Assembly: GCA_963805065.1 (NCBI GenBank)
Contig: CAWDSS010000017.1
Location: 726-64,725 of the forward strand
DNA length: 64,000 nucleotides
Reading direction: 5' to 3'
From: Candidatus Omnitrophota bacterium
Lineage (GTDB): Bacteria; Omnitrophota; Gorgyraeia; Gygaellales; Profunditerraquicolaceae
Made by a program: the position numbers and the translations under genes. Each line of letters opens with the position of its first letter. The first letter of the stretch is position 1. Under the pieces are notes generated by a model that had not been told where the DNA came from, did no database searches, and worked only from the letters and a program-made list of their open reading frames with translations. Below, piece after piece: positions 11,155 through 63,712 of the stretch.

Positions 11155-11239
11155 CTGTGAGCATTCCTAATACTTCTCATTTCCAATTATCCATTCCCTT
11201 ACTGTTATTTCTTCCATATTTATTCCATTTATATAGGCT

Positions 11240-11998: not shown

Positions 11999-13118
11999 AA
12001 TTATCTGTTGTCTTGTCTTTTATAATTTCTAGCGACTGTGCTCTCATCTTTTCCTTCAATTCATTATTACTCAAGATAAATTTCAATTTTTCAGCTAATT
12101 CACCAATTTTATTCGGATTATAGCTATATCCATTTATACCATCTTTTACTAAATCTTCTGTTACTCCAGCATAATTAGAAGAAATTACCGGTAAACCGCA
12201 GGCCATCGCTTCGTTTACTACGAATCCCCAAACTTCATTGAATGAAGGAAGGACGAAAACATCGGCCAATTTATAATATGTTACAATAGCTTCTTTCTGG
12301 ACAAATCCTTCAAAGAAAACATTTTTTATATCATGCTTCCTAATATATTCCAAATATTTATCTTTTTCTTTACCTTCCCCGAGCAGGATCAGTCCGACAT
12401 CAGCCATATCCAGCTTTTCAAACTCCGCAATGAGATTAAGAACGCCTTTGTGAGCGATAAATTTTCCAACATAAATAATATTCTGAGAAGGGTATCTCCT
12501 TTTCATCTGAATAATTTCATTATCCTGTATTTCTTTACACTTACGCATGAACCACTCAACATCAACTGTATTACAACCAACAACAGTCTTTTCAGGCTTC
12601 GCTCCATAATAAATAATCTGCTCCTTAGCTGCTGTCCCACAAGCAACATAAGAATCGAATCTTGAAATAATATTCCTTTTGTAAAAGTCGGTTAGTGGAT
12701 TTTTAATAAAACCACTCAACAGATGACTCTCCGCCCAAAGAGTGATAGGTATCTTTTTTATTTTTGCATATAAAAGCGCTTCTATTGTTACCAAATAGTG
12801 ATAACCGCACATACAAATAGCATCTGGCTTGAAATTAGTTAATATTTGCCAAAATCCAAGATTAAAATAAATGGGCATTTCCCATGATCGAATAAATATA
12901 CAAAAATTTTTTAGTATACTATAGTTAAACCTAATATCGTCCAAATTAATTTTCCATTTTCTATTACTTTCTTTCTCTGCTAGAAAGATAACTTTTAAAT
13001 CGACATCAGAATATTTGGATATTGAATTGAATACGGAAATTCGATAAGGAGCAATAATATTTGTAATTAATACGATTTTCTTTCTCATTTTTTCATTCTT
13101 AACTATCTTGATGCTCAA
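11946..13118 (-). CDS. Glycosyltransferase family 4
   Basis: C-terminal block PSFNEVWGFVVNEAMACGLPVISSNYAGVTEDL. Confidence 0.8.
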   Translation of the reverse strand: MSIKIVKNEKMRKKIVLITNIIAPYRISVFNSISKYSDVDLKVIFLAEKESNRKWKINLDDIRFNYSILKNFCIFIRSWEMPIYFNLGFWQILTNFKPDAICMCGYHYLVTIEALLYAKIKKIPITLWAESHLLSGFIKNPLTDFYKRNIISRFDSYVACGTAAKEQIIYYGAKPEKTVVGCNTVDVEWFMRKCKEIQDNEIIQMKRRYPSQNIIYVGKFIAHKGVLNLIAEFEKLDMADVGLILLGEGKEKDKYLEYIRKHDIKNVFFEGFVQKEAIVTYYKLADVFVLPSFNEVWGFVVNEAMACGLPVISSNYAGVTEDLVKDGINGYSYNPNKIGELAEKLKFILSNNELKEKMRAQSLEIIKDKTTDNYAEKILEAVRYGLQKDL

Positions 13119-13923
13119 GATGATTCTTTATTCTATTTCTATATTTCAAATAGTAAGCTATTTTAGCTCGAAGAAAATAATAAACAATTAAAAATTTATT
13201 TATGATTCCTGGGGCATAGATTCTTCTTATTCTTAGTAATTCTTTTCTCCATCTTCTTATGGATGCCTTCTGCCCGCTTTTACTTTGTGGATAAATTCGA
13301 AAGTTTCCTAGTATTTTCGGGATCAGGGCTATTTTAAATTTTTTTCCAATCCGGCAATAAAATTCTGTATCCATGGAATAGTCTAAATCTTCATTAAGAT
13401 AACCCACTTCCTCTAATACAGATTTTCTAAAGAAAACTGTTGGTTGGGGGGGGGTGAATCGACCACAGGCAAACTGCCTGTAATTGAAATCTATTATCTC
13501 TTTTGTAAAAAGAAAATTGCCATTCTCATCAATATAATTAAAATATCCATAAACCATCCCAACATCGGGATTCTTCAAGAAAAAATCCGCAATAATACTT
13601 ACTGTTTCTAGTAGGTAAGTATCATCGGAATTTTGCCATGCCAAAATTTCGCCTGTTGCCATTTTAAATCCTTTATTAATTGCCTGCGTTTGACCGTTAT
13701 CCGGTTCTGATTTCCAGATTATTTTTTTATCATATTTTTTTAATATGTCTAATGTATTGTCCGCCGAAGCTCCGTCTATTACTATGTATTCAATATTGGG
13801 GTAGTCTTGATTCAAGACACTTAAGATTGTTTCCTCGATAAAATTACCTTGATTAAATGAAGGCGTTACTATAGTTACCTTCGGATTTAATAAAATTAAA
13901 TTTTTATTATTTTCCGCTTGCAT
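13099..13923 (-). CDS. Glycosyltransferase family 2
   Basis: VTIVTPSFNQGNFIEETILSVLNQDYPNIEYIVIDGASADNT and a QNSDD acidic motif. Contains the C9 tract listed separately. Confidence 0.85.
   Translation of the reverse strand: MQAENNKNLILLNPKVTIVTPSFNQGNFIEETILSVLNQDYPNIEYIVIDGASADNTLDILKKYDKKIIWKSEPDNGQTQAINKGFKMATGEILAWQNSDDTYLLETVSIIADFFLKNPDVGMVYGYFNYIDENGNFLFTKEIIDFNYRQFACGRFTPPQPTVFFRKSVLEEVGYLNEDLDYSMDTEFYCRIGKKFKIALIPKILGNFRIYPQSKSGQKASIRRWRKELLRIRRIYAPGIINKFLIVYYFLRAKIAYYLKYRNRIKNHLEHQDS
13446..13454 (-). repeat. Homopolymeric C9 tract (G9 on plus strand) inside the GT2 coding sequence
   Basis: Plus strand reads tggttGGGGGGGGGtgaatc. The coding strand reads ttc aCC CCC CCC Caa cca (F-T-P-P-Q-P). 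It is the only G/C run of 9 nt or more that I found in the window. Confidence 0.9.
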
Positions 13924-14006
13924 TTCTTCATGCCTCTCAAGTAAATATTCATATTATTTTTCAATAAACAAAAATATATCTTTTCCAAACTACACCTATA
14001 ATCTTA

Positions 14007-15371
14007 CTAACTATTAATTGTCGATTTTTTTAATATAAACTTTTTCCTAAATAAATAAAATAAAATAATTGAAAACCATAAAGGAGTGCTCTCTAATCCA
14101 TTGGATAATATTGAAAGCATCATCAAGCCAACACACAATATTAGAAAGAACAAATAATCAAAAATATTTCCTTTTATACTCCACCTTACATAAAAACCTG
14201 AACAAATAAAGCCAATAACAAACCCTCCAAACAATACATATAGCATACCAAAATCCCTATACAATCCGTAAATAATATTATATAACGCATTATATTTTTT
14301 TTCTTTGCCATCATCAGTAAACCCTACTGTTGTAAACTCCCAGTGCTTTTCCCTATTATCAAAAACAAGAGAATGAATACTAGGGTCTATTAGTCTAAGT
14401 AATGTCACTACGACACGCTCTATACCACCAATAGAACTAAGGCCATAAGTGTACTGAGTATGTAGTATGCTTTTGGGATCAGACAGCTCCTGGTCAAGGA
14501 GAACAAAACCTGCGGTATGATAATCTATTACATACACTTTAATCAGCTCAAATATTTTTCTATGTCCCGCTCTCTGTACACTAACAAAAAATAACAGAAA
14601 TACTAATATAAGCCCAACTTTTTTTATAAATGCTTTAGCTTTTATAAAATTATGGTTTTTTACAAACAAAGACCCGGAAGATGTAAACAACACAACCATA
14701 ATTATCAACAGATAAAGATAGATAAGTTCCCTTGAAAAATATACCATTGAGTTTAGGATAACTATCAGAATACTTATGAAAATAAATTTATAATTTTTCG
14801 TAATTAGAAATGCACATATTGAATAGTATAAATATGCATATATTATAGATTGAATTACGACACGAAAAAAATAAGCAATACCTTTACTGGGAAATAACTC
14901 CCCTGCACTATGAAAAGTTCTAATTACAACCAACCTATAACTAGTACCATGTGTTAAGACAAGATTAAATCCTTTATATGCATAAAATAACATAAAAGGT
15001 ATCACAATTATTAAACATATAGTAAAAAATATTCCTAATTTTTTTAGTTTTTTAGTATTTTCGTTGGTTTTATCAATTAGGAACTTTGTATTTACTACTG
15101 GCTTATTTTTGTGAATATTCCTCATTCCAACATAGAGAAAACAACCAATTGTATAAAACAATATAAACATACAGGTCAACAAGTTAGTGCGCCAACTCGG
15201 TAAGAATAAGCCGGTTATACTTAAATTTGCAACAAATAGCCATCCTCCCCACCACCATAATATTATAGATACAGGATTAAATAACGACTTATAAATTTTA
15301 TATGACACTGCTGTAAAAAAAAGTATTGCCACAATACCAGCACTAAAATAAATCATTGAAATGCTCCCCAT
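14007..15371 (-). CDS. O-antigen polymerase (Wzy)-like polytopic membrane protein
   Basis: 454 aa, hydrophobic almost throughout with no soluble domain, embedded among glycosyltransferases. Assignment is by context and topology only. Confidence 0.5.
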   Translation of the reverse strand: MGSISMIYFSAGIVAILFFTAVSYKIYKSLFNPVSIILWWWGGWLFVANLSITGLFLPSWRTNLLTCMFILFYTIGCFLYVGMRNIHKNKPVVNTKFLIDKTNENTKKLKKLGIFFTICLIIVIPFMLFYAYKGFNLVLTHGTSYRLVVIRTFHSAGELFPSKGIAYFFRVVIQSIIYAYLYYSICAFLITKNYKFIFISILIVILNSMVYFSRELIYLYLLIIMVVLFTSSGSLFVKNHNFIKAKAFIKKVGLILVFLLFFVSVQRAGHRKIFELIKVYVIDYHTAGFVLLDQELSDPKSILHTQYTYGLSSIGGIERVVVTLLRLIDPSIHSLVFDNREKHWEFTTVGFTDDGKEKKYNALYNIIYGLYRDFGMLYVLFGGFVIGFICSGFYVRWSIKGNIFDYLFFLILCVGLMMLSILSNGLESTPLWFSIILFYLFRKKFILKKSTINS

Positions 15372-15457
15372 TTGTCAAGACACAAAATTGGCAGAAAAAG
15401 TAGATTACTCTCCATAATTTCTTTCATAATCAATACTCTTTTCACAATCAATTTTCT

Positions 15458-16696
15458 TCATACAGATAAAATCTCTTCATAAAGTTTTTTATACCACTTG
15501 GCAACTTTTACCATCTCAAATTCTCTCAAAGCTTTTTCTCTCGCTTTTTGCCTAAGATTATTATAATCAGGATTGTTCAACACCCAATCGATACCTTTTG
15601 CAAGGTCGTCTGTACTAAAGGGTTGGGCAAGGTAACCATTAATCTGCTGCTCAATCATATCGCTATTTCCCCCTATATTGAAAGCAACAACTGGCGTTCC
15701 GCAGGCCAATGGTTCCATGATGGTATTAGAAAGATTTTCTTGCAGACTTGGCACCACCATCACGTCTACTGCACTATAAAGTGTCACTAAACTCACATCG
15801 TCATGCAAATACCCAAGATAGTGAGTTTTAAATCCAAAATTTTGAGGCTCTTTTGGCTCACTACTTCCAAACAGGACAAATTCTATATCTTTGTTTTTGA
15901 GTTTATACAAAGCTTCGCTCAGTTGTGCAAAACCCTTTCGTGGATCGCTTGTCCATCCTATGGCACCAAAAAGAACGAGTTTTTTATCTCGAGAAAGGCT
16001 CCAAAGTCCTCTTGCTTTTTGTGTATCAAATGGTTTAAACACATTTGTATCTATAGTATTTGGAATATTTACAATCCGCCTGTTACCTAAAAGACCACTC
16101 TTAGCGGCACAATCAGTGAGCCATTTACTGGGCCCCACTACCGTGATATTTTTAGTCTTATTATATGTTTTATTTTTTCGTTTGAAGATTCTTCTGCTCA
16201 AATCTTTTTTTTTATCTGAATTAAGTATAGGGCACGCTCCACATTCTTTTTCATATTTACCACAGGAATTGTCATAATGGCATCCTCCGGTAAATGCCCA
16301 CATATCGTGCAACGTCCACACAATCGGAGCTTTTATCTTAGCAATGTCTTCTATGCTTATCATCCCGCCACAAATCCACTGCAGATGGACGATGTCGGGA
16401 TTTATCTCGTTTATCTTATTGACCATACTGCTAAATGGTAGCGATGAGGGGCTAAAAAGTGTCTTGGTTCGCTCTTTGTAAAATCTCACGGGGATAGAGT
16501 CCAAAAACGGTCTAAGTTTATTGAGCTTTTTTTTGACTTTGTCGGTTTCGGCTAAGACGGTATAATCATCACTGCTTTTGCTTTGCACAAGCATTTGAGA
16601 GTCAATGCCTTGAGAGAGCAAAGCCCTATGAAGCCTATAAGCCGCTCTCGCCGCTCCTCCTTGGATGTCTAATGTGTTTACGATAAGGATTTTCAT
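15458..16696 (-). CDS. Glycosyltransferase family 4/GT-B
   Basis: MKILIVNTLDIQGGAARAAYRL N-terminus and C-terminal VVPSLQENLSNTIMEPLACGTPVVAFNIGGNSDMI. Confidence 0.8.
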   Translation of the reverse strand: MKILIVNTLDIQGGAARAAYRLHRALLSQGIDSQMLVQSKSSDDYTVLAETDKVKKKLNKLRPFLDSIPVRFYKERTKTLFSPSSLPFSSMVNKINEINPDIVHLQWICGGMISIEDIAKIKAPIVWTLHDMWAFTGGCHYDNSCGKYEKECGACPILNSDKKKDLSRRIFKRKNKTYNKTKNITVVGPSKWLTDCAAKSGLLGNRRIVNIPNTIDTNVFKPFDTQKARGLWSLSRDKKLVLFGAIGWTSDPRKGFAQLSEALYKLKNKDIEFVLFGSSEPKEPQNFGFKTHYLGYLHDDVSLVTLYSAVDVMVVPSLQENLSNTIMEPLACGTPVVAFNIGGNSDMIEQQINGYLAQPFSTDDLAKGIDWVLNNPDYNNLRQKAREKALREFEMVKVAKWYKKLYEEILSV

Positions 16697-26312: not shown

Positions 26313-27130
26313 TATTCCTCCTTGAATTTGTTAAGTATCTCTTCTTTCTTCTTAACCAACGCTTTAGGGTTTTCGATGAGATCGGTTGCGCTCCAGGCAT
26401 CGTGGCAATATCTTTTAAGATATTCGTATTGCAGGTAACCATAGCCTTTATCTGCCCATTTTGCACCCCAGGAATTCTTGAATTTAAAGACCTGCCTTGC
26501 GTCATCAAAGCCTACAATGCATATAGCATGGCCTCCCAAGAGCTCTTCATTTCTTTTAGGCATGGGAATTAAGCCGGTGTTAAGTGCCTTCCTGCTCATC
26601 CAGGATGCAAAAACTTTTACTCCAGCAAGAAACGGCCCGTTTACCAGCAAGCTTCTTTTCATTTCCACTACGCTATTAAGCCGCGCATATGCCTTAATGC
26701 GGTATCTCTTTGCGTCCTTATTTGCATTTTTCTTAGGCCGGTCTTTTTGATGCGGTTTGTAAGGCCATTCATTTTCCGGGCAAACTCCGTAATTAAGCAA
26801 TACCTTCATTGCAACACGCGGATATGTCCCTTCTTCATCAGGCGCGCCGTCAAATTGTTTACATAGGCTGTATACGTAGCGCGGAGACAGTTCGATAAGC
26901 TTCCTGTATTCTTTAGAATCCTCATATTCTTTCACACCCACAACAGAAGCAAACGCAACACAAGTGCCGTCGCTACCCTGATCCCTGACAGGAGTCATGC
27001 TTGCGGTGTAATCAAAACGTTTAGGCAGGAGGATTGGCGGCAAAACAAGCGCCATGGAAATATCGCGTAAATCCTTGGGGTCTTTACGGCAGCCGAAAGA
27101 ATAAATTAATTTTGTTTTCATTTTAATCAA
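26312..27130 (-). CDS. Papain-family (C1) cysteine peptidase, no signal peptide
   Basis: Catalytic blocks RDQGSDGTCVAFAS (Gln/Cys), GGHAICIVGFDD (His), FKNSWGAKWADKGYGY (Asn-Ser-Trp). The N-terminus is not hydrophobic. Confidence 0.8.
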   Translation of the reverse strand: MIKMKTKLIYSFGCRKDPKDLRDISMALVLPPILLPKRFDYTASMTPVRDQGSDGTCVAFASVVGVKEYEDSKEYRKLIELSPRYVYSLCKQFDGAPDEEGTYPRVAMKVLLNYGVCPENEWPYKPHQKDRPKKNANKDAKRYRIKAYARLNSVVEMKRSLLVNGPFLAGVKVFASWMSRKALNTGLIPMPKRNEELLGGHAICIVGFDDARQVFKFKNSWGAKWADKGYGYLQYEYLKRYCHDAWSATDLIENPKALVKKKEEILNKFKEE

Positions 27131-28071
27131 AACCTGTGTTTAAATGCTACGTTTATACCTAAATTTTCTCCCAGCTCATTCTTTAAAGCAAAAATAGCTT
27201 CGTCATCTTTGTTAAAATGGACTTCGGCGCCAAAATCAAGGGAACGAATCTGGTCCTTAGCATATTTCATCTCAAAGGTTAAACCAACATCATGGTTTAT
27301 CTTCCATGTTCCGTAAAGGCAAATAATATCAGGGACAGTCCCCTTCGGGGACGGTCCCTGATAACCCACCCCTAAGCGGTATTTAATTGCCCCCTCTTTT
27401 GGATAAATCGTAGGAGTTTCAATCTGGGCTCTAAAATCAAATCTTGAATTTGTGCCTGTAGAGAACATATAACTCAGGCGGTTTGCCGAGCTTATCTGCC
27501 AAAAGCCCGTAAAGGTTAAGGTAGTGGAAATTTTCTCTTTTGTTTTAAGGTTTGTTTTTTGACAGGTATAAATAATCTGCTGATTTTTATCCAACTGCCA
27601 GCCGCCCCGCAGAGTGAGGATATCAGGCGATTCCTTTTGGGTTACCGCAAAATAAATCTGATTTGACTCATCAGCTGCCCATGTACCGCTCAATTTTAAA
27701 AGCCTGACCTGCGTCAAGCCATTCTTATCGGTTGATTTAACCTCAAAAACGAGCTTATCGCTTTCACAAGAGATAATCTCGCCCTTAAACATAAGAACTT
27801 CTTTCTCTGAGTCCGATGTATTTTTACTAATCTCTAGTTCCAAATCATTGTTAGGATCAAGAGACCAATTACCTGTAAAAACGATTTTTTGCGGCAGCTG
27901 ATATTTCATCCGCCAGGTTTCAGGTTCATTAAGCCAATAAATAAGATTATTATTTTCACCTATTGAAAAAGTTCCGTCAGCAAGGAAGGTTTCTTGTCCG
28001 TTGGCAACAACCAGATGATTATCATTATCAATCGAATATCTATTGCGCATTGGCATTATACTTATGGCCAA
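27127..28071 (-). CDS. Hypothetical protein built from about 9 beta-hairpin-like repeats
   Basis: Recurring about every 30 aa: FTGNWSLDPNNDLELEI, LSGTWAADESNQIYFAV, LRGGWQLDKNQQIIYTC, FTGFWQISSANRLSYMF, LYGTWKINHDVGLTFEM. No signal peptide. 4-nt overlap with the C1 peptidase gene. Confidence 0.6.
   Translation of the reverse strand: MAISIMPMRNRYSIDNDNHLVVANGQETFLADGTFSIGENNNLIYWLNEPETWRMKYQLPQKIVFTGNWSLDPNNDLELEISKNTSDSEKEVLMFKGEIISCESDKLVFEVKSTDKNGLTQVRLLKLSGTWAADESNQIYFAVTQKESPDILTLRGGWQLDKNQQIIYTCQKTNLKTKEKISTTLTFTGFWQISSANRLSYMFSTGTNSRFDFRAQIETPTIYPKEGAIKYRLGVGYQGPSPKGTVPDIICLYGTWKINHDVGLTFEMKYAKDQIRSLDFGAEVHFNKDDEAIFALKNELGENLGINVAFKHRF
27330..27360. repeat. GGGAC hairpin element, copy 1 (inside the beta-repeat CDS)
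   Basis: caGGGACAGTCCCCTTCGGGGACGGTCCCtg. Translated in-frame as Q-G-P-S-P-K-G-T-V-P-D. Confidence 0.9.
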
Positions 28072-29072
28072 TTCTTATGAGATAGATACCAGTTCACAGT
28101 AAGCCTGATTCCTTGTTCAAATCCTACTTTCGGCTTCCACCCGGTTTCACTTACCACCTTCTTAGAATTAAGCCGGTATCTTATATCGTGCCCAGGCCTG
28201 TCTTTGACAAACCTTATTAACTTGTTGGGCTTTCCTAATATTTTCAGAATCTTTTTCACTACTTCTATATTTCTTTTCTCCTGCCCGCTTCCTATGTTAT
28301 AAATCTCCCCCGTCCTGCCTTTTTTTAGGACTGAAAGTATTGCTTTAGCGCAATCAGACACATACAGCCATTCCCTTATATTCTGGCCCTTTGCATAAAC
28401 AGGGACGTTTCTATTTTTTAAGGCTCGGGAAATTATCACTGGAATTAGTTTTTCCGGATATTGCCAAGGGCCGTAATTATTACAAGGCCTCACAATTATT
28501 GCGGGAAAATTGTAAGTTCTAATGTAAGATTTTATGAGTAAATCTGCAGCAGCCTTGGAAGCGGCATACGGACTGTTAGGCCGTAAGGAGCTTTCTTCGC
28601 TGAATTTACCCAATTTTGTCTCCCCATATACTTCATCAGTGCTAATTTGTAAAAACTTTCTTATTTTATATTTTCTTGCCATATCTAATAAAACCAAGAC
28701 CCCTTTTATGTTTGTATCAACGAAGGGAACGGCATCCACGATGCTGCGGTCGACGTGAGTTTGGGCAGCAAAGTTAACGAGATAATCCGGTTTTTCTTTA
28801 TTAAAAATAAATTCGATTCTAGACTTATCGCAAATATCGGCTTTATAGAATTCAAACTGCTCCTTTACCTCTTCTAATCGCTTCAAGTCACCAGCATAAG
28901 TTAAATTATCAACAACTAAAATCTCAGGGACAGTCCCCTTCGTGGACAGTCCCTGTTTAACCAATATTCTTACAAATTCGCTACCGATAAAACCTGCACC
29001 GCCGGTTACCAGAATCTTTAGGGACAGTCCCCTTCGGGGACAGTCCCTTATTTTAGGTAATTTTTTACGCAT
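28062..29072 (-). CDS. rfbB: dTDP-glucose 4,6-dehydratase
   Basis: ILVTGGAGFIGS, PNSPYAASKAAADLL (YxxxK), CNNYGPWQYPEKLIP. The only in-frame ATG (29072) gives a 19-aa extension that reads through a repeat element, so the start is uncertain. Confidence 0.88.
   Translation of the reverse strand: MRKKLPKIRDCPRRGLSLKILVTGGAGFIGSEFVRILVKQGLSTKGTVPEILVVDNLTYAGDLKRLEEVKEQFEFYKADICDKSRIEFIFNKEKPDYLVNFAAQTHVDRSIVDAVPFVDTNIKGVLVLLDMARKYKIRKFLQISTDEVYGETKLGKFSEESSLRPNSPYAASKAAADLLIKSYIRTYNFPAIIVRPCNNYGPWQYPEKLIPVIISRALKNRNVPVYAKGQNIREWLYVSDCAKAILSVLKKGRTGEIYNIGSGQEKRNIEVVKKILKILGKPNKLIRFVKDRPGHDIRYRLNSKKVVSETGWKPKVGFEQGIRLTVNWYLSHKNWP
28925..28955. repeat. GGGAC hairpin element, copy 2 (inside rfbB)
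   Basis: caGGGACAGTCCCCTTCGTGGACAGTCCCtg. Translated as Q-G-L-S-T-K-G-T-V-P-E between the Rossmann helix and the second beta strand. Confidence 0.9.
29021..29047. repeat. GGGAC hairpin element, copy 3 (abuts the stop codon of the upstream reductase gene)
   Basis: GGGACAGTCCCCTTCGGGGACAGTCCC (consensus copy). It lies immediately 3' of the TAA at 29048-29050 and immediately 5' of the conserved KILVTGGAGFIGS codons of rfbB. Confidence 0.9.
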
Positions 29073-29866
29073 TCTTCCAGCACCTCATTTATAGGCCTGA
29101 CTTTAAAACCGCTATTTTCCAGTTTCTTTGTGGATAAAATCAGGTTAGTCCTCACTAAATTCAGCTTCTTGAAATCTATTACCTTATACTTAAAATTGGT
29201 GACGTGCTTCTTATAAACCTCCAACAGGTCAGGATACCGCAGGCTTCCTTTGTTTACAACGTTATAAATACCTTTGGCATCGATGGCTAACAGGTGTTTT
29301 ATAGCCCTTAGAAAATCAGGAATATAAGTAATTGCATTAGGCAAATCAATAATACTGTGTTTATACTTTATTAACTTATCCAGGAGATTTTTGGGATGAG
29401 GCCTGTCATCAAGAGGAACTCTTAACCTGGGAATCAGGATATTATATTTATGGCTTAATATTTCTAATGCCCGTTCAGAATAAATTTTGCTTCTGCTATA
29501 AAATAAATCAAAAAAATCAGGCAGTTTTTTTTCATCTATAGGCCTGTCTTTGGCATAATCAAAGTGGTAAATACAACCGCTGCTGATATGCACAAGTTTG
29601 ATTTTGTTCCTTAGGGCAACTTCCGCAAGGATAACCGGGACAAAAACATTAGCTTGTAGGGTTTTATCTTTATCGAGCTCGCAATCATCCACGTTCCTTC
29701 CGATATGCCCAATACAGTTAATTATTGTTTTGGGGTTAAATTTATCGATTTCAGCTTGTGCATTTTTGAAAGAATAGATTTTTTTGCCGGAAAGCGCGCA
29801 ATTTAAGCCTTCCTGCAGCCTTTCTCCCAGATAGCCTTTCCCCAATATAAGTATTTTATTGTTCAT
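29048..29866 (-). CDS. RmlD-superfamily sugar-nucleotide reductase resembling NRS/ER-type bifunctional 3,5-epimerase/4-reductases
   Basis: ILILGKGYLG (GxGxxG), SSGCIYHFD, FYSRSKIYSE (YxxxK), PRLRVPLDDRPHPKNLLDKLIKYKHSIIDLPNAITYIPDFL, GIYNVVNKGSLRYPDLLEVY. These align block by block with my recollection of plant NRS/ER (GCIFEYD, FYSKTKAMVEE, LRVRMPISSD..PRNFITKI..VVDIPNSMT, GIYNFTNPGVVSHNEILEMY). Confidence 0.6.
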   Translation of the reverse strand: MNNKILILGKGYLGERLQEGLNCALSGKKIYSFKNAQAEIDKFNPKTIINCIGHIGRNVDDCELDKDKTLQANVFVPVILAEVALRNKIKLVHISSGCIYHFDYAKDRPIDEKKLPDFFDLFYSRSKIYSERALEILSHKYNILIPRLRVPLDDRPHPKNLLDKLIKYKHSIIDLPNAITYIPDFLRAIKHLLAIDAKGIYNVVNKGSLRYPDLLEVYKKHVTNFKYKVIDFKKLNLVRTNLILSTKKLENSGFKVRPINEVLEECVKNYLK

Positions 29867-30725
29867 CCTTAAGTATTCCTTTCAGATAATCCCCGTAACT
29901 TGTATTTATTTGTTTAGAAAGCTTCTCCAGTTGTTTCTTATTAATGTAGCCCATCCGATAAGCGACTTCTTCTATACAGCCTATTTTCAAGCCCTGCCTC
30001 TCTTCTATGGTCTTGATAAATATCGAGGCGTCGATAAGCGATTCGAATGTCCCGGTATCAAGCCAGGCATAGCCGCGGCCCAATAGCTTAACTTTCATTT
30101 TCCCTCTTTTTATGTATTCGTTGTTGACGTCTGTGATTTCCAGCTCATTCCTTGAAGAAGGCTTAATTTTCTTGGCAATTTTTACTACATCGTTATCATA
30201 AAAATACAACCCGGAAACCACCCAGTTTGATTTAGGTTTCCTGGGCTTTTCTTCTATGGAGATGACCTTACATTTATTATCAAATTCCAGGACCCCGTAC
30301 CTCTGGGGCTGGTTTACATAATAACCGAAAACCATTGCGCCGTTTTTTAAAGAAGAGCAGCTTTTCAAAATTTCACTGAGGTTGCCGCCGTAAAAAATAT
30401 TGTCTCCCAGGACCAGGCAAACAGAGTCATCCTTAATAAATTGCTCGGCAATTATGAAGCTATCTGCTATTCCTTTTGGCTCTTTTTGAACGGCATAGGA
30501 AATATGCACTCCTAATGCATTTCCATTGCCAAGCAGATCTTTAAACCTTTCGATTTCTTTGGGCGAGGAAATCAAAAGTATATCTTTAATCCCGGCAAGC
30601 ATTAAAACAGACAAAGGATAATAAATCATAGGCTTGTCGTAAATTGGAAGCAGTTGTTTACAAATGCCTTTGGTAACCGGGTATAACCTTGTTGCCTTAC
30701 CCCCTGCCAATAATATTCCTTTCAT
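29856..30725 (-). CDS. rfbA: Glucose-1-phosphate thymidylyltransferase
   Basis: MKGILLAGGKATRLYPVT, KQLLPIYDKPMIYYPLS, RGYAWLDTGTFESL. 289 aa. Confidence 0.92.
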   Translation of the reverse strand: MKGILLAGGKATRLYPVTKGICKQLLPIYDKPMIYYPLSVLMLAGIKDILLISSPKEIERFKDLLGNGNALGVHISYAVQKEPKGIADSFIIAEQFIKDDSVCLVLGDNIFYGGNLSEILKSCSSLKNGAMVFGYYVNQPQRYGVLEFDNKCKVISIEEKPRKPKSNWVVSGLYFYDNDVVKIAKKIKPSSRNELEITDVNNEYIKRGKMKVKLLGRGYAWLDTGTFESLIDASIFIKTIEERQGLKIGCIEEVAYRMGYINKKQLEKLSKQINTSYGDYLKGILKDEQ

Positions 30726-30985
30726 TTTTTTATCCTTTCCAGCTTAAAATAAAACGACAATAAAATCATTATTATCGCCAATGTAATCACATTTGCCACT
30801 ATGATTATTTTATCCCTCAAATGAAAGCCGTAAATAATCCATAAAGAAGAGCCCAGGCTTAATTGAAAAAGAGTAATCACGCTGACGTCTTTTACTGATT
30901 TTGTTTTCAAGACTTTAATAATCTGCGGCACAAAAGAAAACATGGTTAATGTTGCCGCCGCCGCTCCAATCAATGTCCAATACAT
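30722..30985 (-). CDS. SemiSWEET / PQ-loop family small membrane protein
   Basis: 87 aa, three TM helices, and PQ motif in TMFSFVPQIIKVLKTKS. Confidence 0.7.
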   Translation of the reverse strand: MYWTLIGAAAATLTMFSFVPQIIKVLKTKSVKDVSVITLFQLSLGSSLWIIYGFHLRDKIIIVANVITLAIIMILLSFYFKLERIKK

Positions 30986-32487
30986 TTTAGATAACCAGAG
31001 CCTCCTGCTTTTCGGAAATCGAAAATATGCCCTAAGACTTTCTTTGCTGCGCGCAAAGAGTACCTCAGGTCATCCATATCTTTTATAGAAAACAGCTTTC
31101 TTAAAATAAATTCGGGATTAAAAGAAATCTTATACATCCCCTGCACTAATTCCATGATTTTTTCATCGGAAACAGCAGTCTGCATTACCGGCTGTTTCAT
31201 ATCATAGTCGTCCCACTCTAAGCTCCTAAGCCACCCATTTTGTTTACACTCATTAAATAAAACTGTCCCCGGATAAGGAATAACCATTGTAGCCTGCATA
31301 GTATAGGCATAACCTTTATTTAATAGCCATTTTCCCAATTGTAAGGTTTTTAGCGCATCTTCGTAACTTTCCCAGGGATAGCCAAACATAATTGTTATAT
31401 GCGGGTACAACCCTGCTTTTGTGGCAAGTTTACATCCGTCTATGATATCCTGAACTTTGAGATTTTTGTTTATCCTGTCTAAGGTGCCTTGATTTGCGGA
31501 TTCCAACCCGAACAAGATCAACCGAAAGCCGGATTTTTTCATCAACCGGTAATCCTGCTCAGTCAAAATACCAAAACGCATATTACAGTCTAAATAAATT
31601 TTTTTGTTATAGCCGGCTGAAATCATGCCGTTACAAAATTCTTTCAGCCAATCTCCTACAGGAAATGTCCCCGAATCATCCATAATTTCACGGATCTGGT
31701 ATCTATAAATAAGCGTGCCTATCTCATTTAATACATTATTGGCATTGCGGGTGCGAAACCTGGGATACAATTGACTCCAGGCGCAGAAACTACACTTTCC
31801 CCACCAGCAGTCTCTTGCGGACATAATATATGTCCCGGGGATTCTTTTATAATTGCCGTTTTTAGAGGAATAGAGTTTCCACTTGGTCAGATCACGGTCG
31901 ATAAATGGCAGGTTATTTAAATCGTGGTTAAGCTGGAATTGTCCGGTGTTCTTTATTTGGCCGTTTTCGCGATAATATATCCCCGGCTCTAAAATCGGGT
32001 TTCCGGTTTTTGGACCTCGGCCTTCATAATAAGAAATGTATTGGCAGAGGTTTGAAAGCAAAAAGTCGTAGTCCCCGCCGGTTATAACAAAATCTACCTG
32101 GGAATTCTGAAATGACTCCTCGGGCAGGGCTGTAACGTGGTCTCCGAATAAAATAGTTGTCAGTTTCCAGTTGTCAGTTTCCAGTTTTTTCAAATCATTA
32201 ATAACCTTCCAATGCTGCCTGATAACCGGGGTTTTAGTCTCGAAGGCAATTAAATCGGGTTTTTCTGCCTGAACAAAATCCATAAATTGCTGATAAGAGG
32301 TGCCTTCGGCAATGCAATCATTCCAGATGACCTCGTGCCCTGCTTTGCTAAGTAAAGTGGCGGCGGTTGCCGGGACAACAGGATATATATAAGTAGGTTC
32401 CTTGAAGAATTGAAGCTGGCGGTTTTGGCCTAAGGTTGGATAACCCTTTTGGTTAGTTAAAGGAGGATATGAAATAATTATTTTCAC
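30970..32487 (-). CDS. B12-binding-domain radical SAM protein with non-canonical Cx4Cx2C spacing
   Basis: N-terminal B12-like domain (ILFGDHVTALPE). The cluster motif is SARDCWWGKCSFCAW, with four residues between the first two Cys. Confidence 0.8.
   Translation of the reverse strand: MKIIISYPPLTNQKGYPTLGQNRQLQFFKEPTYIYPVVPATAATLLSKAGHEVIWNDCIAEGTSYQQFMDFVQAEKPDLIAFETKTPVIRQHWKVINDLKKLETDNWKLTTILFGDHVTALPEESFQNSQVDFVITGGDYDFLLSNLCQYISYYEGRGPKTGNPILEPGIYYRENGQIKNTGQFQLNHDLNNLPFIDRDLTKWKLYSSKNGNYKRIPGTYIMSARDCWWGKCSFCAWSQLYPRFRTRNANNVLNEIGTLIYRYQIREIMDDSGTFPVGDWLKEFCNGMISAGYNKKIYLDCNMRFGILTEQDYRLMKKSGFRLILFGLESANQGTLDRINKNLKVQDIIDGCKLATKAGLYPHITIMFGYPWESYEDALKTLQLGKWLLNKGYAYTMQATMVIPYPGTVLFNECKQNGWLRSLEWDDYDMKQPVMQTAVSDEKIMELVQGMYKISFNPEFILRKLFSIKDMDDLRYSLRAAKKVLGHIFDFRKAGGSGYLKCIGH
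32159..32186. repeat. Perfect 14-nt tandem duplication (GTCAGTTTCCAGTT x2) inside the rSAM CDS
   Basis: Read directly. With the preceding aatAGTT it forms five NNCAGTT-type heptamers (32152-32186). Encodes K-L-E-T-D-N-W-K-L-T-T. Confidence 0.9.
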
Positions 32488-32496
32488 CGGTAAAAT

Positions 32497-33465
32497 TTAT
32501 TGTTTCTCTTCGGGAAGCCCCCTGGAGAGTAGACCTTTCATAAAATAAAACCCATAGCCGATGTGAGTGATAATTATACCAAAAAAAACCAGAGGAATCA
32601 AGCGTAACTCTTTAGAAATACTAAAGATAAAGACCAAAAGAAGATAGAAAAATACCCCTAACAAATACATAATCAAAAAGAGAGGAAAGATTGCAGATAA
32701 TATTATTCCTCCCGCTATAAAAAATAAAAATATGGAAGGGACAAAATAAGCAAATTTAAAAGAAGTAGCAGGGAATTTCTTTGCGAAATACCCCCTGTGG
32801 AGCGCGTAGCTTACAACCTGTTTAAAATGCGATTTGAATAAGGGCCTGCGATGGTGCCAAACCAGGACTTGGGGATCATAAATTATTTTTTTGCCAAGCT
32901 TAGCGGTAATATCCAGGCATAATTTAGTATCTTCACCGGGCCAAAAACGCGTATCAAAACCCCCGATTTCTTGCATAATGGTTTTACGGATAAAAAAATT
33001 GCAGCTGGGGTAGTCAACCACTTCCTGCTTATGCTTAGATATGTAGCGGTAGGTATATTTTCCGCTCACTAAAGCACAGCTATAAACTGCACCGCTTGCC
33101 CTCTGAAGCAAACTATCATCGGGCGGGGTAATTGCCGGCCCGCCTACCGCAGCAACACTTTCATCCTTAAAATGCAGCAGTGCGTTTTTGAGCCAATCTT
33201 TTCTGGGATAAGCATCGTCGTCGATGAACGCCAGTATTTCACCCTTGGTGTGGCTCAAGGCAATATCCCTTTTTTGCGCAGGGCCTACTTCACCTGTAGG
33301 AATAATCTTAACAGGGACAGTCCCCTTCAGGGACAATCCCTGTTCATCTTTATCAGGCAAAATCAGGATTTCGAATTCAGAAAAATCAAGCTCCTGGCAT
33401 GCCTTTACGCATTCTTCTAAATTCTTTTGCCAAGTTTTTACGGCGATGATAATCGATACGGTCAT
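32497..33465 (-). CDS. Glycosyltransferase family 2 with C-terminal TM segments
   Basis: VSIIIAVKTWQKNLEECVKAC...FEILILPD...ILAFIDDDAYP (DxD region), followed by hydrophobic C-terminal helices. Confidence 0.8.
   Translation of the reverse strand: MTVSIIIAVKTWQKNLEECVKACQELDFSEFEILILPDKDEQGLSLKGTVPVKIIPTGEVGPAQKRDIALSHTKGEILAFIDDDAYPRKDWLKNALLHFKDESVAAVGGPAITPPDDSLLQRASGAVYSCALVSGKYTYRYISKHKQEVVDYPSCNFFIRKTIMQEIGGFDTRFWPGEDTKLCLDITAKLGKKIIYDPQVLVWHHRRPLFKSHFKQVVSYALHRGYFAKKFPATSFKFAYFVPSIFLFFIAGGIILSAIFPLFLIMYLLGVFFYLLLVFIFSISKELRLIPLVFFGIIITHIGYGFYFMKGLLSRGLPEEKQ
33312..33342. repeat. GGGAC hairpin element, copy 4 (inside the GT2 CDS)
   Basis: caGGGACAGTCCCCTTCAGGGACAATCCCtg. Translated as Q-G-L-S-L-K-G-T-V-P-V. 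Confidence 0.9.
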
Positions 33466-36717: not shown

Positions 36718-38255
36718 TAGATTTTGGCGGAGAGGCCGATTTTAGCCTGCTCAACATCCACTTTAATTACCTTGGCTTTAACTTTATCTCCCGCTTTTAA
36801 TTGCGCTGCTTGTTCTTTGTCTATTTCACTGGAATAAATCAAACCCTCAAGGTCTTCTTCAATTTTCACAAACACGCCAAAATCAGTAATGCTTATGACC
36901 TCGGCTTCCAAGACAGTATCCAAAGGATACTTAGTGGCTATGTCAGGCCAGGGATTAGGCTGCAGTTGTTTTAACCCTAAAGCAATACGGCGGTTTTTAC
37001 TGTCCACGGAAAGCACAACTACATCTACTTTCTGCCCTTTTTTCAAAACATCCTGCGGGTGGGCAATGCGCTTGGTCCATGATATATCAGAAACATGAAT
37101 CATCCCTTCCAAGTTGCTATCCAGCTCAACGAATGCGCCATAATCAGTGAATCCCCTTACCTTACCGGGAACCTTAGTCCCGGAGGGATATTTATTTTCA
37201 GCATCAATCCAGGGATTCTGCTCCAGTTGTTTAAGGCTAAGCGATATCCTACGGGCTTCTCTGTCTACGTTTAAAACCTGGGTTTCTACGATATCGCCAA
37301 CGGCAAACATTTCGCTGGGATTGCTTACCCTTGTCCATGAGATCTCTGAAACATGAATCAAACCCTCAATGCCTTTTTCTAATTCCACAAACACACCATA
37401 CGCAACGATATTTACTACCTTGCCCTTGACTTTAGTAGCCACGGAATATTTCGCCTCGATATCCTGCCAGGGGTCGGGTAAACGTTGTTTTAACCCCAGG
37501 GAAATTTTTCCCGATTCCCTGTCCAGGTTAAGAATCATCACTTCAATCTTATCCCCGAGAGCAACGATTTCCGAAGGATGGCTTATTTTGGACCACGACA
37601 TATCGGTAATATGCAAAAGCCCATCCACTCCGCCCAGGTCTATAAATGCGCCGAAATCGGTTATTGCCTTTACAGTGCCCGGGTGAATCGTCCCAACTTT
37701 TAAATCCTGCCAAATTTTATCCTTGGCAAATTCTTTTTCTTTCTGCACAGCTTCTCTGCGGGAAAGTATAATGCTTCGCCTTAAATTATTTACCTTGACG
37801 ATTTTAAAATGATATGGCTTATACATAATGTCTTTGTCGGTAACTCCCTTAAATGCCGAAAGCGAAGAAGGCAAGAACCCTTCCACGCCCATAACGTCTA
37901 CCAGGAATCCGCCCTTTACCTTTTTAACGGGTCTACCCTCTACCAACTCTCCGGTCTGGGAAAACTTTACAATCTTATCCCAGCCTTGAATTCGGATAGC
38001 CTTTTCCCTGGACAAGGCGATTATGCCGGCATCATTCTCAATGGATTCCACAAAGAAATCTAATTCTTTGCCTACTTCAAGATCTGCCTGGCTGAATTCA
38101 TTGATGGCAACAATTCCCTCTGATTTGAATCCTACGTCCACCAATACTTCTTTTGTCTTTATTGATACTATTTTGCCTTGCACTACCTGGTTCTCTCTGA
38201 TTATTTTGATACTTTGGTTATACAACTGCTCCATATCCGTTTTTGTTTCTGTCAT
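36717..38255 (-). CDS. rpsA: 30S ribosomal protein S1
   Basis: 512 aa with six S1-domain repeats (GxVxxxxxFGAFVxL...GLxHxSE pattern recurs, e.g. GTVKAITDFGAFIDLGGVDGLLHITDMS). Confidence 0.95.
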   Translation of the reverse strand: MTETKTDMEQLYNQSIKIIRENQVVQGKIVSIKTKEVLVDVGFKSEGIVAINEFSQADLEVGKELDFFVESIENDAGIIALSREKAIRIQGWDKIVKFSQTGELVEGRPVKKVKGGFLVDVMGVEGFLPSSLSAFKGVTDKDIMYKPYHFKIVKVNNLRRSIILSRREAVQKEKEFAKDKIWQDLKVGTIHPGTVKAITDFGAFIDLGGVDGLLHITDMSWSKISHPSEIVALGDKIEVMILNLDRESGKISLGLKQRLPDPWQDIEAKYSVATKVKGKVVNIVAYGVFVELEKGIEGLIHVSEISWTRVSNPSEMFAVGDIVETQVLNVDREARRISLSLKQLEQNPWIDAENKYPSGTKVPGKVRGFTDYGAFVELDSNLEGMIHVSDISWTKRIAHPQDVLKKGQKVDVVVLSVDSKNRRIALGLKQLQPNPWPDIATKYPLDTVLEAEVISITDFGVFVKIEEDLEGLIYSSEIDKEQAAQLKAGDKVKAKVIKVDVEQAKIGLSAKI

Positions 38256-38324
38256 TTTAATTCTCCTCGATTTAACGCAGCCTTTGGCGCTGCCTCTGGC
38301 ATTTAATGGTTAATTTTTATTTTT

Positions 38325-38350: not shown

Positions 38351-38389
38351 AAAAAAACACCTCCCTTATCAAGAATTTTTCAAAAATAT

Positions 38390-38443
38390 GGGGACGTTTC
38401 TATTTTTCTGCTGACAGGAGACGTAAAAAATAGAAACGTCCCC
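38390..38443 (-). terminator. 54-nt perfect-stem hairpin (18-bp stem), copy 1; likely plsC terminator
   Basis: GGGGACGTTTCTATTTTT-18 nt-AAAAATAGAAACGTCCCC. It starts 6 nt after the plsC stop. On the minus-strand RNA it is followed by AUAUUUUUG. Confidence 0.65.
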
Positions 38444-38449
38444 TTTTTT

Positions 38450-39037
38450 CTAATCTTTAAGCTCTCTTACGCTATTCATTATTGATTGAGCAATGTCCTC
38501 ATGAGACTTATTCCTGTCTAAAAGAATCTGTTTACCGAACGTAACGGAGATTTTTGAAAAAGTAATAAATTTAGCTGCTTTAGGCAATACTGTTTCAGTC
38601 CCCTTTACATGAACCGGTATAACAGGCACGTTTAATTTATTTGCCAGGAATCCTACCCCTGCTTCCGGCATAGCTTCCTTTTCGTCAATGTGAATTCGCC
38701 TTCCTTCCGGAAACAAAAGTAAGCCGCCGCCTTTTTTTACCCGCCTTATCGCTTCTTTCAAAGCCCAAATATCCGATGAGCCTCTCTTAACAGGAAATGC
38801 CTTTAACTTAAACAAAAACCAGGAAGAAACCCCGTTAGAAAACAAATCGTGTTTAGCCATATAATTTACATCCCTGGGACAGGCACTGCCTACGACCACC
38901 GGGTCAAAGTAACTTACGTGGTTACTGGCTAAAATAAAACCTCCGCTTTTAGGAATATTTTCCAAGCCTACTGTGTGGAGCCGAAAAAAAACATTCAATA
39001 TTATCCTGCATAGGCCTCGGACTAAATAATGTATCAT
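38450..39037 (-). CDS. plsC: 1-acyl-sn-glycerol-3-phosphate acyltransferase
   Basis: Acyltransferase motifs NHVSYFDP (HX4D) and LLLFPEGRR. Confidence 0.85.
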   Translation of the reverse strand: MIHYLVRGLCRIILNVFFRLHTVGLENIPKSGGFILASNHVSYFDPVVVGSACPRDVNYMAKHDLFSNGVSSWFLFKLKAFPVKRGSSDIWALKEAIRRVKKGGGLLLFPEGRRIHIDEKEAMPEAGVGFLANKLNVPVIPVHVKGTETVLPKAAKFITFSKISVTFGKQILLDRNKSHEDIAQSIMNSVRELKD

Positions 39038-48771: not shown

Positions 48772-49254
48772 TTAATCCTCCTTCTTAAATTCTACCTCTG
48801 TAAGCTGGCCTTCTTTGGCAAAAATTATTTTGTCCGGCTCTATTTTTAAAACCTCATAGCCGCTTACGGAATCTCCTATTCCTACCACGGTTGCGTTTAC
48901 AATAGCATAGGAACGGCCGTTTTTGTCATAAATTAATCCTTCAATGACTAATTCTCCGCTGGCTTCTTCCTTGTCCAGTTTTACAAGCCTCCCCTCGGAA
49001 TTAACCAAGGAGATAAAGGGGTTACGCTTTCCCTTCGCATCGTAACTAAATTGCTCTTGAGCAGAAAGGTAATGACAAATTCCAAAGCTCAAAATCAAAA
49101 ATAATAAAATAAAGGGGACGTTTCTATTTTTCTGCTGATTAGGAAACATTAAAAATAGAAACGTCCCCTTTTCTTTTAAGGGACTACAAATACCAAATCC
49201 CAAAAATTGACTTTTGACTTTTGACTTTTGACTTTTGACTTTATTTACTAACAT
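48772..49254 (-). CDS. PilP-like pilus assembly protein (start uncertain: 49254 or ATG at 49149)
   Basis: KRNPF motif and a C-terminal beta domain (ELVIEGLIYDKNGRSYAIVNATVVGIGDSVSGYEVLKIEPDKIIF), positioned between pilO and pilQ. The first 35 codons are encoded by repeat elements. Confidence 0.55.
   Translation of the reverse strand: MLVNKVKSQKSKVKSQFLGFGICSPLKEKGTFLFLMFPNQQKNRNVPFILLFLILSFGICHYLSAQEQFSYDAKGKRNPFISLVNSEGRLVKLDKEEASGELVIEGLIYDKNGRSYAIVNATVVGIGDSVSGYEVLKIEPDKIIFAKEGQLTEVEFKKED
49114..49168. repeat. 54/55-nt perfect-stem hairpin, copy 2 (at the pilO-pilP junction)
   Basis: GGGGACGTTTCTATTTTT-19 nt-AAAAATAGAAACGTCCCC. The arms are identical to those at 38390-38443. The loop begins with the same CTGCTGA. 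On the minus strand the loop contains the ATG at 49149-49147. Confidence 0.9.
49209..49243. repeat. Heptamer tandem array GACTTTT x5
   Basis: GACTTTTGACTTTTGACTTTTGACTTTTGACTTTA, read directly. It lies at the pilO stop / annotated pilP start. Confidence 0.9.
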
Positions 49255-56193: not shown

Positions 56194-56344
56194 TACTACC
56201 TCCTTGGCAGTGCAGCCAGCTGAGTTTCAGCTCTGTCACTTTGCGTCCCAAGATTGCTCCTGGTTTGCCTTTATCAATGAGTATATCCTTAACCTGTTCT
56301 CTATAATAAATATACACTATATTTTGTTGCTTTTCAAGGCTATA

Positions 56345-63599: not shown

Positions 63600-63639
63600 A
63601 TGAATATTATAGTTATGCTTACATTTCTGCGAAGCACAA

Positions 63640-63712
63640 TGGACCCGAGCGGATTCGAACCGCTGACCTCCGCAATGCGAATGCGGCATTCTCCCAACTG
63701 AACTACGGGCCC
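63640..63712 (-). tRNA. tRNA-Ala (anticodon CGC)
   Basis: Reverse complement: GGGCCCG-TA-GTTC-AGTTGGGA-GAAT-G-CCGCA-TTCGCAT-TGCGG-AGGTC-AGCGG-TTCGAAT-CCGCT-CGGGTCC-A. A 73-nt cloverleaf with the G3-U70 alanine identity pair. CCA is not encoded. Confidence 0.93.

Follow-up and report, generated by a model that had tools for sequence, protein, structure and literature searches.

A 27-nt hairpin repeat, probably of the REP type, inserted in-frame in genes of Candidatus Omnitrophota and flanking transposase genes in Aminicenantes

A stretch of 64,000 nt from a Candidatus Omnitrophota bacterium (contig CAWDSS010000017.1, positions 726 to 64,725; G+C 39.5%), hereafter referred to as the window, carries four copies of a 27-nt palindromic element, which is probably a non-autonomous mobile DNA hairpin of the repetitive extragenic palindrome (REP) type with an in-frame behavior similar to that of the Rickettsia palindromic elements (RPE). 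A pattern search with a degenerate motif returned exactly four plus-strand matches to the consensus GGGACAGTCCCCTTCGGGGACAGTCCC in the window, with 0-2 substitutions, against 0.00 copies expected from 100 dinucleotide-preserving shuffles of the window, and no further copy was detected in the 64 kb when up to 7 mismatches were allowed. An earlier sequence-only reading of this DNA had already reported these four near-identical copies, with coordinates including two flanking bases per side, and had made its idea of a mobile element dependent on further copies elsewhere. Such copies do exist, since at least 117 loci were retrieved in a scan of one genome per species, and at least 120 loci in a metagenome scan.

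The repeat family and its hairpin are directly supported. The 27-nt unit contains the 11-nt palindrome GGGAC-A-GTCCC twice, with CTTCG in between. Flanked by its usual CA/TG, the consensus forms, as single-stranded DNA (ssDNA), a 7-bp and a 6-bp stem separated by one A-A mismatch and closed by a 3-nt loop, with an energy of -12.9 kcal/mol (z = -5.8), and of -14.0 kcal/mol for the reverse strand; the hairpin as a whole spans 27-31 nt, with a central A-A (or T-T) mismatch and an energy of -12.9 to -14 kcal/mol. The usual feet of the stem are symmetric (YA-GGGAC...GTCCC-TR), both of them reading YAGGGAC. In low-GC copies, the core is preceded by A in 48/58 cases and followed by T in 53/58, so that the unit effectively measures 29 nt in low-GC genomes, A-GGGACAGTCCCC-TTC-GGGGACAGTCCC-T. 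Besides, the element contains neither the dinucleotide TA nor TGA, and therefore introduces no stop codon in any of the six frames.

In the window, where the genes around the four copies are all on the minus strand, three copies are found inside genes coding for unrelated proteins. Copy 1 (GGGACAGTCCCCTTCGGGGACGGTCCC; 27332..27358, plus strand, one substitution compared to the consensus) codes for GPSPKGTVP in a 314-aa beta-repeat protein whose function is not known (27127..28071, minus strand; YQ-GPSPKGTVP-DI). Copy 2 (GGGACAGTCCCCTTCGTGGACAGTCCC; 28927..28953, plus strand, one substitution) codes for GLSTKGTVP, residues 41-49 of the 336-aa product of rfbB, the gene of a dTDP-glucose 4,6-dehydratase (28062..29072, minus strand; KQ-GLSTKGTVP-EI), and copy 4 (GGGACAGTCCCCTTCAGGGACAATCCC; 33314..33340, plus strand, two substitutions) codes for GLSLKGTVP in a 322-aa family-2 glycosyltransferase (GT2; 32497..33465, minus strand; EQ-GLSLKGTVP-VK), where it falls within the variable loop that separates LPD from VKIIPTG. 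These three copies have their orientation, their codon phase and their CA...TG flanks in common, and the palindrome is extended to 27327-27363 (TATCA...TGATA) for copy 1 and to 33310-33344 (AACA...TGTT) for copy 4. The translations of the open reading frames (ORFs) agree with the previous claim of a single frame, G-[LP]-S-x-K-G-T-V-P, in three unrelated proteins. As for copy 3 (29021..29047, plus strand), which matches the consensus perfectly, its description as a gene-junction copy is correct in that it starts right after the TAA stop codon (29048-29050) of an rfbD-like gene (dTDP-4-dehydrorhamnose reductase; 29048..29866, minus strand), but incomplete in that it also lies, in another phase, inside the only available rfbB frame. 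Indeed, since no ATG, GTG or TTG is present between copy 3 and KILVTGGAGFIG (the Rossmann motif), the only open rfbB frame begins at the ATG at 29072 and reads MRKKLPKI-RDCPRRGLS-LKILVTGG, the ancestral N-terminus MRKKLxKILVTGG being split by copy 3, which is read as RDCPRRGLS in this N-terminal extension.

The RfbB protein of the window has the same sequence as protein P0001, and among its named homologs the closest ones (63-70% identity) bear an Omnitrophota annotation. In its AlphaFold model (mean predicted local distance difference test score, pLDDT, of 86.7; residues 1-14 below 50), residues 41-49 are in coil, after helix 28-40 and ahead of strand 50-55, and belong to a 10-residue block whose mean pLDDT falls to 70. 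On this model, the copy 2 peptide lies in the loop that connects helix A of the Rossmann fold to its strand 2, in line with the position first proposed for this insert, here with lowered confidence of the model. A homolog of the beta-repeat protein gene, in locus L073, also contains the element, at another position.

The same behavior is observed on a larger scale outside the window. Among the matches listed, 98/158 copies in low-GC, Omnitrophota-like DNA (62%; 32/57 from genomes and 66/101 from metagenomes) are located in open frames that extend over 150 codons or more, in all six frames, in both orientations and in unrelated proteins, the host frames being always kept open. One phase accounts for 63 of these 98 copies, read as G-L-S-P-K-G-T-V-P on one strand and G-Q-S-P-S-G-T-V-P on the other. 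The copies in low-GC hosts are singletons. The single reading frame of the three window copies would, taken in isolation, be compatible with G-L-S-x-K-G-T-V-P being an ancestral or convergent peptide motif, and the hairpin could in principle also be an artefact of assembly or sequencing. Nevertheless, both ideas are hardly credible: the former is refuted by the frame and orientation statistics, since the same DNA is read in six frames and is also found between genes, the DNA being more conserved than its translation and the host proteins mutually unrelated, and the latter is opposed by the occurrence of the element in single-cell genomes, long-read metagenome-assembled genomes (MAGs), one cultured isolate (Pseudoduganella) and assemblies made by different programs. 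It is therefore the palindrome and not the peptide that is conserved, and the initial comparison with an RPE-like mobile palindrome surviving as in-frame peptides is strengthened by these intragenic copies in all six frames and by the intergenic ones found elsewhere.

The spread of the element over taxa is wide. Among the matches listed, the hosts are Omnitrophota, Planctomycetota-labelled MAGs, Myxococcaceae, Telluria, Pseudoduganella, Actinomycetes/Gaiellaceae, Aminicenantes, Gammaproteobacteria and Eubacteriales, i.e. at least eight phyla, with a locus G+C ranging from 35% to 73% and an almost invariant core; 96 of the 120 metagenome loci listed are below 50% G+C. Several loci may occur in one genome, with at least 11 copies in one Myxococcaceae MAG, at least 9 in one Actinomycetes MAG and at least 7 in Omnitrophica H51-bin231. 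A scan of viral contigs for the core gave 0 matches, and no phage vehicle was seen in it. The flanks of the core differ by lineage. In Telluria, the copies are arranged as REPIN-like inverted doublets whose spacer is conserved, while the Myxococcaceae copies have a common upstream gccttggg....ccg. In Actinomycetes/Gaiellaceae (loci L003, L034, L035, L061, L094, L097, L103 and L112), a second hairpin, GGGTCTGACCCCGAAGGGGTCTGACCC, is followed some 30 nt downstream by the 27-mer, with which it is paired; this second hairpin differs from the reverse 27-mer only by A/T swaps at two stem positions per arm, the pair being a REP heterodimer with compensatory changes. In several Omnitrophota loci (L011, L049, L065, L096 and L081; L031, L068, L111 and L023), the core is located at the tip of longer recurrent composite repeats, e.g. 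cttgtcgt[27]tactggc and tctcgcttggta[27]tgctacagt, where [27] stands for the 27-nt unit; these repeats are found 60-80 nt upstream of divergently oriented gene starts, and some of their extended stems comprise G-T pairs.

A link with a transposase came from the clustering of all ORFs of the at least 117 genome loci, out of which a Y1/HUH transposase emerged. In locus L046 (Aminicenantales), the gene of a 194-aa Y1 transposase (4138-4722) is preceded by CGAA-oriented copies of the element, one at 4014-4041 and a degenerate one before it, and accompanied on its downstream side by TTCG-oriented copies at 4692-4718 and 4738-4765; the element itself makes up the final nine codons of the transposase gene (GQSPSGTVP). 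The layout of locus L020 (Aminicenantes) is the same. The L046 protein is RAYT-like: it contains the HUH-containing motif LMPNHFH, reaches 46.9 bits with the Pfam model Y1_Tnp (PF01797), whose cut-off is 23, and has REP_Tyr_transpos as its best NCBIfam match. Its 13 relatives P0124 to P0136, with identities of 49-71%, have element-like C-terminal peptides as well, as displayed in the scan by each of them except P0127 and P0132. This Aminicenantes-type layout is the canonical arrangement of a REP-associated tyrosine transposase (RAYT). In the same line, hairpins with varying loops, and with one nested copy, flank the RAYT genes of contigs L119-L125, the contigs of these relatives, and these genes occupy a conserved chromosomal position between DUF1667 and Maf-methyltransferase genes; the conserved position together with the flanking hairpins fits a domesticated and vertically inherited RAYT. 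The search for a RAYT/IS200-like gene that the sequence-only reading had advised was thus successful in Aminicenantes-type contigs, where the element flanks such a gene, but yielded none flanked by it in the Omnitrophota DNA examined.

As for the anatomy of the insertions, no sign of a target-site duplication was found, the mean longest direct match between flanks being 3.40 over 145 dereplicated copies compared to 3.42 +/- 0.07 after shuffling, and abutting direct repeats of 2-4 nt show no excess that is clear or consistent, with only the 2-nt repeats at offset 0 exceeding the shuffles (12 versus a maximum of 11). The mean longest inverted match reaches 4.08 in the 145 copies, compared to 3.47 +/- 0.08 after shuffling, and at least four extra base pairs are present in 11/58 copies, for 1.6 expected and a shuffle maximum of 7. 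These palindromic flanks reflect either an entry of the element into the centers of palindromes or the loops of hairpins, or a variation of its own outer stem; the first possibility would also explain the nested copies.

The rfbB gene is a strong hot spot for the element. Among the matches listed, 13/158 low-GC copies lie in orthologs of the window rfbB and 5 at the rfbD end next to it, with an overlap at the junction, where copies no more than 60 nt away from both genes enter both counts, and RfbB-type genes are present in 21/120 metagenome loci. The rfbB copies (loci L015, L043, L099, L128, L156, L164, L183, L218, L221, L236 and L244, and the window) occupy three sites in two frames, namely the loop of window residues 41-49, a position after DLKRL and the N-terminus. 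The short connection attributed to RfbB homologs at this loop by the sequence-only reading was confirmed in 'empty' Omnitrophota proteins, which read FVRQAVK-KGYK-IVVVDKLTYAG, with a short KGYK connection. At the same loop, other homologs have GLSPKGTVP or RDCPRRGLS, and these two frames at one loop imply at least two insertion events. Degenerate versions (e.g. GLSLKGDVP) and nested ones (e.g. RDCPH-RSKGVLSEVEG-TGLSL and RDCP-ESLRQLRGIHPERSEGPSKL-KGLSL) are also found in RfbB homologs. In locus L099 (1-430, reverse strand), an 81-nt unit made of the element and DLIVVDKLTYAGDLKRLQ is tandemly duplicated inside rfbB, which could be due to recombination between copies or to an assembly effect.

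The junction copy between rfbD and rfbB is 27/27 identical in five lineages while its flanks are 46-82% identical, and its position in the window and L236 lineages differs from that in the L043, L099 and L164 lineages. Recurrent insertion, homogenization or selection on the hairpin could each produce this pattern. The last of them belongs to a broader alternative, in which the copies would be kept mainly as RNA or DNA signals, such as a hairpin stabilizing or processing the rfbD-rfbB mRNA or an intergenic terminator, mobility being only their historical origin. Along with the conservation of the junction copy, this would be in agreement with the intergenic copies of L008 and L069, bracketed by A-runs and T-runs like bidirectional terminators, with the extended stems whose G-T pairs allow pairing only in the RNA of one strand, and with the reported mRNA-stabilizing role of REPs, which are mostly located 3' of genes (PMC3733652). 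However, a near-perfect core was what the loci were retrieved by, which leaves decayed copies under-sampled, at the junction as elsewhere, and L015 and L073 carry other repeats at this very junction. Moreover, the intragenic copies cover both orientations and every frame, the window copies show no T-run after the hairpin on their sense strand, and scans against Rfam found neither an RNA family at the copies of the window nor a structured-RNA host gene in 11 loci with recurrent flanks. A mainly signal-based maintenance is therefore regarded as quite improbable.

Several observations nevertheless weigh against the REP/RAYT interpretation. To begin with, the best NCBIfam model of the L046 transposase, REP_Tyr_transpos, gives 61.4 bits, below its curated equivalog cut-off of 80. 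A hidden Markov model (HMM) of 121 RAYTs was searched against all ORFs of the window and of the first 126 loci, then against the metagenome loci (709 kb). No RAYT was found in the window and the 9.3 kb by which the contig was extended, on one side only, beyond it, and no cognate RAYT adjoins the low-GC copies covered by this HMM (about 57 genome copies, and 120 metagenome loci in 709 kb among the matches listed), the metagenome loci giving no match with the HMM at all. In the window and the 126 loci, HMM matches were limited to the Aminicenantes-type genes described above and to three RAYTs having other repeats, and the RAYTs found in Omnitrophota carry other flanking repeats: GTAGACAGT.TACGTAA in the L073/P0241 clade, GGGACAGGCTAC/GTAGCCTGTCCC instead of the 27-mer in L118 (P0198), and CCACCTCGTAGGTGG in L093. 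Within the L073 clade (120 proteins), no clear element-coded terminus was recognized, GLSP being internal in P0324 and a partial GQSP lying near the end of P0360. In addition, the GTAG tag by which the main REP superfamily is defined overlaps the 3' foot of the stem in only 13/126 copies and the 5' foot in 4, and no CGTC tag was seen at the stem feet of these 126 copies. The source contig contains 4 copies in about 73 kb, all inside 6 kb, with no further copy in the extra 9.3 kb.

The comparison of occupied and unoccupied sites adds to these difficulties. The clean 9-aa insertion expected by the sequence-only reading was not recovered: the homologs compared for RfbB, the beta-repeat protein and the GT2 are too distant and their host loops too variable in length to reveal it, and the element-coded peptides of the last two proteins do not stand out as nine extra residues cleanly added. 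At the nucleotide level, the only empty/filled pair is the rfbD/rfbB overlap, where the empty version (L221, L128 and L156) reads cctaaaata directly followed by ttagtaacc, and the filled one (window and L236) cctaaaataa[27]taaagattctggtaacc. The two differ by 36 nt, i.e. 12 codons, with the Lys-Ile codons present twice, which does not fit a duplication-free insertion of 27 nt.

These data leave room for another explanation, according to which the hairpin is mobile but spread in Omnitrophota by non-RAYT means: either another transposase would act in trans, or templated repair or gene conversion would copy the hairpin into palindromic or hairpin-forming sites, sometimes replacing loop sequence. 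The lack of a cognate RAYT near some 158 low-GC copies among the matches listed, the element-coded peptides that appear to replace part of a host loop rather than to add nine clean residues, and the 36-nt size of the junction insertion are all in its favor, as are the 81-nt tandem duplication of L099, which is bounded by copies and indicates recombination between them, the nested copies, the flanks palindromic beyond chance and the strength of the rfbB hot spot. We consider it unlikely all the same, the identical core flanking RAYT genes in Aminicenantes-type contigs and no alternative enzyme family recurring beside the copies among the ORFs of the loci. Besides, RAYT genes are single-copy and easily missed in about 1.6 Mb of sampled fragments, so that the sampling of loci is no proof of their absence in Omnitrophota, although the lack of a cognate RAYT in the samples of this phylum does lower the confidence in a RAYT-driven mobilization for the source genome.

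As a separate observation on L073, its RAYT gene (307-882) is accompanied by another repeat of about 54 nt (185-205, 977-1031, 2999-3052, 4090-4148 and 5220-5272), which ends with TAGACAGTCTACGTAA and of which one copy occupies the rfbD/rfbB junction, the site of the 27-mer in the window. The 11-nt palindrome of this repeat, TAGAC-A-GTCTA, has the GAC-A-GTC center that is common to the arms of the 27-mer.

In terms of known systems, the REP/REPIN-RAYT system is the closest (Di Nocera et al. 2013, PMC3733652; Bertels and Rainey 2011, PMC3116915). Both consist of a G+C-rich imperfect palindrome of 20-40 nt with dispersed copies, here several loci per genome in some of the hosts listed, with a Y1/HUH gene bracketed by inverted copies in some genomes, here in Aminicenantes-type contigs, and inverted doublets, here in Telluria, with some in-frame copies in genes, and with families common to distant taxa. 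REPs are sorted into GTAG- and CGTC-tagged superfamilies, the latter including the short RPE-4 and RPE-6; REP-flanked RAYT genes are termed REPtrons, REP families are shared by distant organisms, and in-frame intragenic REPs are most numerous in Opitutus terrae (PVC superphylum) and Rickettsia conorii (RPE-4 and RPE-6) (PMC3733652). The present element differs in that it has no consistent unpaired GTAG or CGTC tag, in that its low-GC copies are singletons and about 62% intragenic whereas REPs are mainly extragenic, and in that its cognate RAYT was not found in the samples of the window's phylum while its core is common to at least eight phyla.

With the RPEs (Ogata et al. 2000, cited in PMC3733652), it shares an in-frame palindromic repeat in unrelated genes and a tolerated peptide. 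The RPEs are, however, restricted to Rickettsia while the present host belongs to Omnitrophota, and the two are likened by behavior and not by sequence. RPE-1 measures about 100-150 bp, compared to 27 nt for the present element. The small dispersed repeats (SDR) of Nostoc and other cyanobacteria, reported by Elhai et al. in 2008, are reportedly hairpin-forming mobile repeats of 21-27 nt, non-coding and capable of nesting; they come from another phylum and have another sequence, and the parallel with them is a tentative one. To our knowledge, no transposase has been linked to SDR. As for miniature inverted-repeat transposable elements (MITEs), they are also short and non-autonomous with inverted-repeat ends, and some are inserted in-frame, but they typically span 70-300 bp with target-site duplications, while no duplication signal was found in 145 copies of the present element. 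A recombinase core site (dif/lox-like 11-5-11), a CRISPR repeat, a terminator-only function and a sequencing adaptor were considered as well and rejected, as they do not fit single dispersed copies, in-frame intragenic positions and a RAYT-flanking layout.

In essence, the sequence-only reading is borne out. The present element is best filed as a member of the REP family with RPE-like behavior and not as categorically new, the direct evidence for a RAYT partner coming from one phylum only. The suggestion that it had not been described holds for this sequence family, which appears to be undescribed, but not for its kind, intragenic REPs having been reported earlier (Di Nocera et al. 2013, PMC3733652). 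In the literature searched, the string GGGACAGTCCCC occurred only in four animal-biology papers without link to bacteria.

Other features of the window are worth recording in their own right. A second hairpin repeat family, GGGGACGTTTCTATTTTT-(18-19 nt)-AAAAATAGAAACGTCCCC, is represented by two copies of about 90% identity (38387-38449 and 49113-49176), both bracketed by A-runs and T-runs, the first lying between the ORFs 38023..38313 and 38450..39037 and the second overlapping the predicted ORF 48772..49254; a terminator-like or REPIN-like nature of this family is possible. The G+C content falls to 32-34% at 8001-16000, compared to about 40% elsewhere, in or beside a glycosyltransferase/radical-SAM polysaccharide gene cluster, and this dip may reflect horizontally acquired DNA. 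A c-di-GMP-I-GGC riboswitch aptamer is recognized at 56202-56278 (minus strand; 61.1 bits in Rfam for a gathering score of 59). Finally, two tandem paralogous radical-SAM-type ORFs of 366 and 396 aa (60902-62002 and 62499-63689, minus strand) have long identical stretches in common, and the second one overlaps a tRNA-Ala gene at 63640-63712.

Coming back to the 27-nt element and to its probable nature of REP-type mobile hairpin, a working model can be proposed. The element would fold, as ssDNA, into a hairpin whose G+C-rich stem, about 12-13 bp long, has a purine-purine mismatch at its center and is closed by a 3-nt loop, and this hairpin would be recognized by a single-copy Y1/HUH tyrosine transposase whose own gene is bracketed by inverted copies, as in the IS200/IS605 and REP/RAYT systems. 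This enzyme would cut and rejoin single strands at the foot of the hairpin, so that copies would move without target-site duplication. Insertion would be favored between A and T, either in the middle of short palindromes or within the loop of a hairpin already in place, which would give rise to the extended complementary flanks and to the nested copies. As the core amounts to nine codons and is free of stops in six frames, insertions into coding DNA would keep the frame and add a nonapeptide rich in Gly, Ser, Pro and Thr, and selection would retain those located in length-tolerant surface loops, mostly in the phase G-[LQ]-S-P-[KS]-G-T-V-P. In this model, the mobilization by a RAYT in Omnitrophota, the single-strand mechanism and the choice of targets are inferred, the role of the transposase by analogy with the known systems.

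Going one step further, one may tentatively imagine a REP family that has crossed phyla with its core unchanged from 35% to 73% GC, and that in Omnitrophota would be mostly a coding nonapeptide cassette, with no cognate flanking RAYT, with palindromes and hairpins as targets and with the rfb operon and RfbB as an extreme hot spot; as a whole, this picture is rather doubtful. If true, it would mean trans-mobilization or non-RAYT copying, together with a continuing variation of loops in surface-polysaccharide enzymes.

For annotation, the element accounts for odd low-complexity loops and for false N-terminal extensions in Omnitrophota proteins such as RfbB. It also offers a concrete, sequence-defined REP family for studying the invasion of coding DNA by selfish hairpins: since the core is short and open in six frames and its copies cluster in one phase, insertion bias and selection can be measured directly against each other. 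The Aminicenantes core and the RAYT gene adjoining it constitute an enzyme-substrate pair for biochemistry, and the presence of the element in many phyla tests the view of a strictly vertical inheritance of REPs and RAYTs. To those who work on REPINs and RAYTs, it finally brings an identical core across phyla, copies that are mostly intragenic and a hot spot in rfbB.

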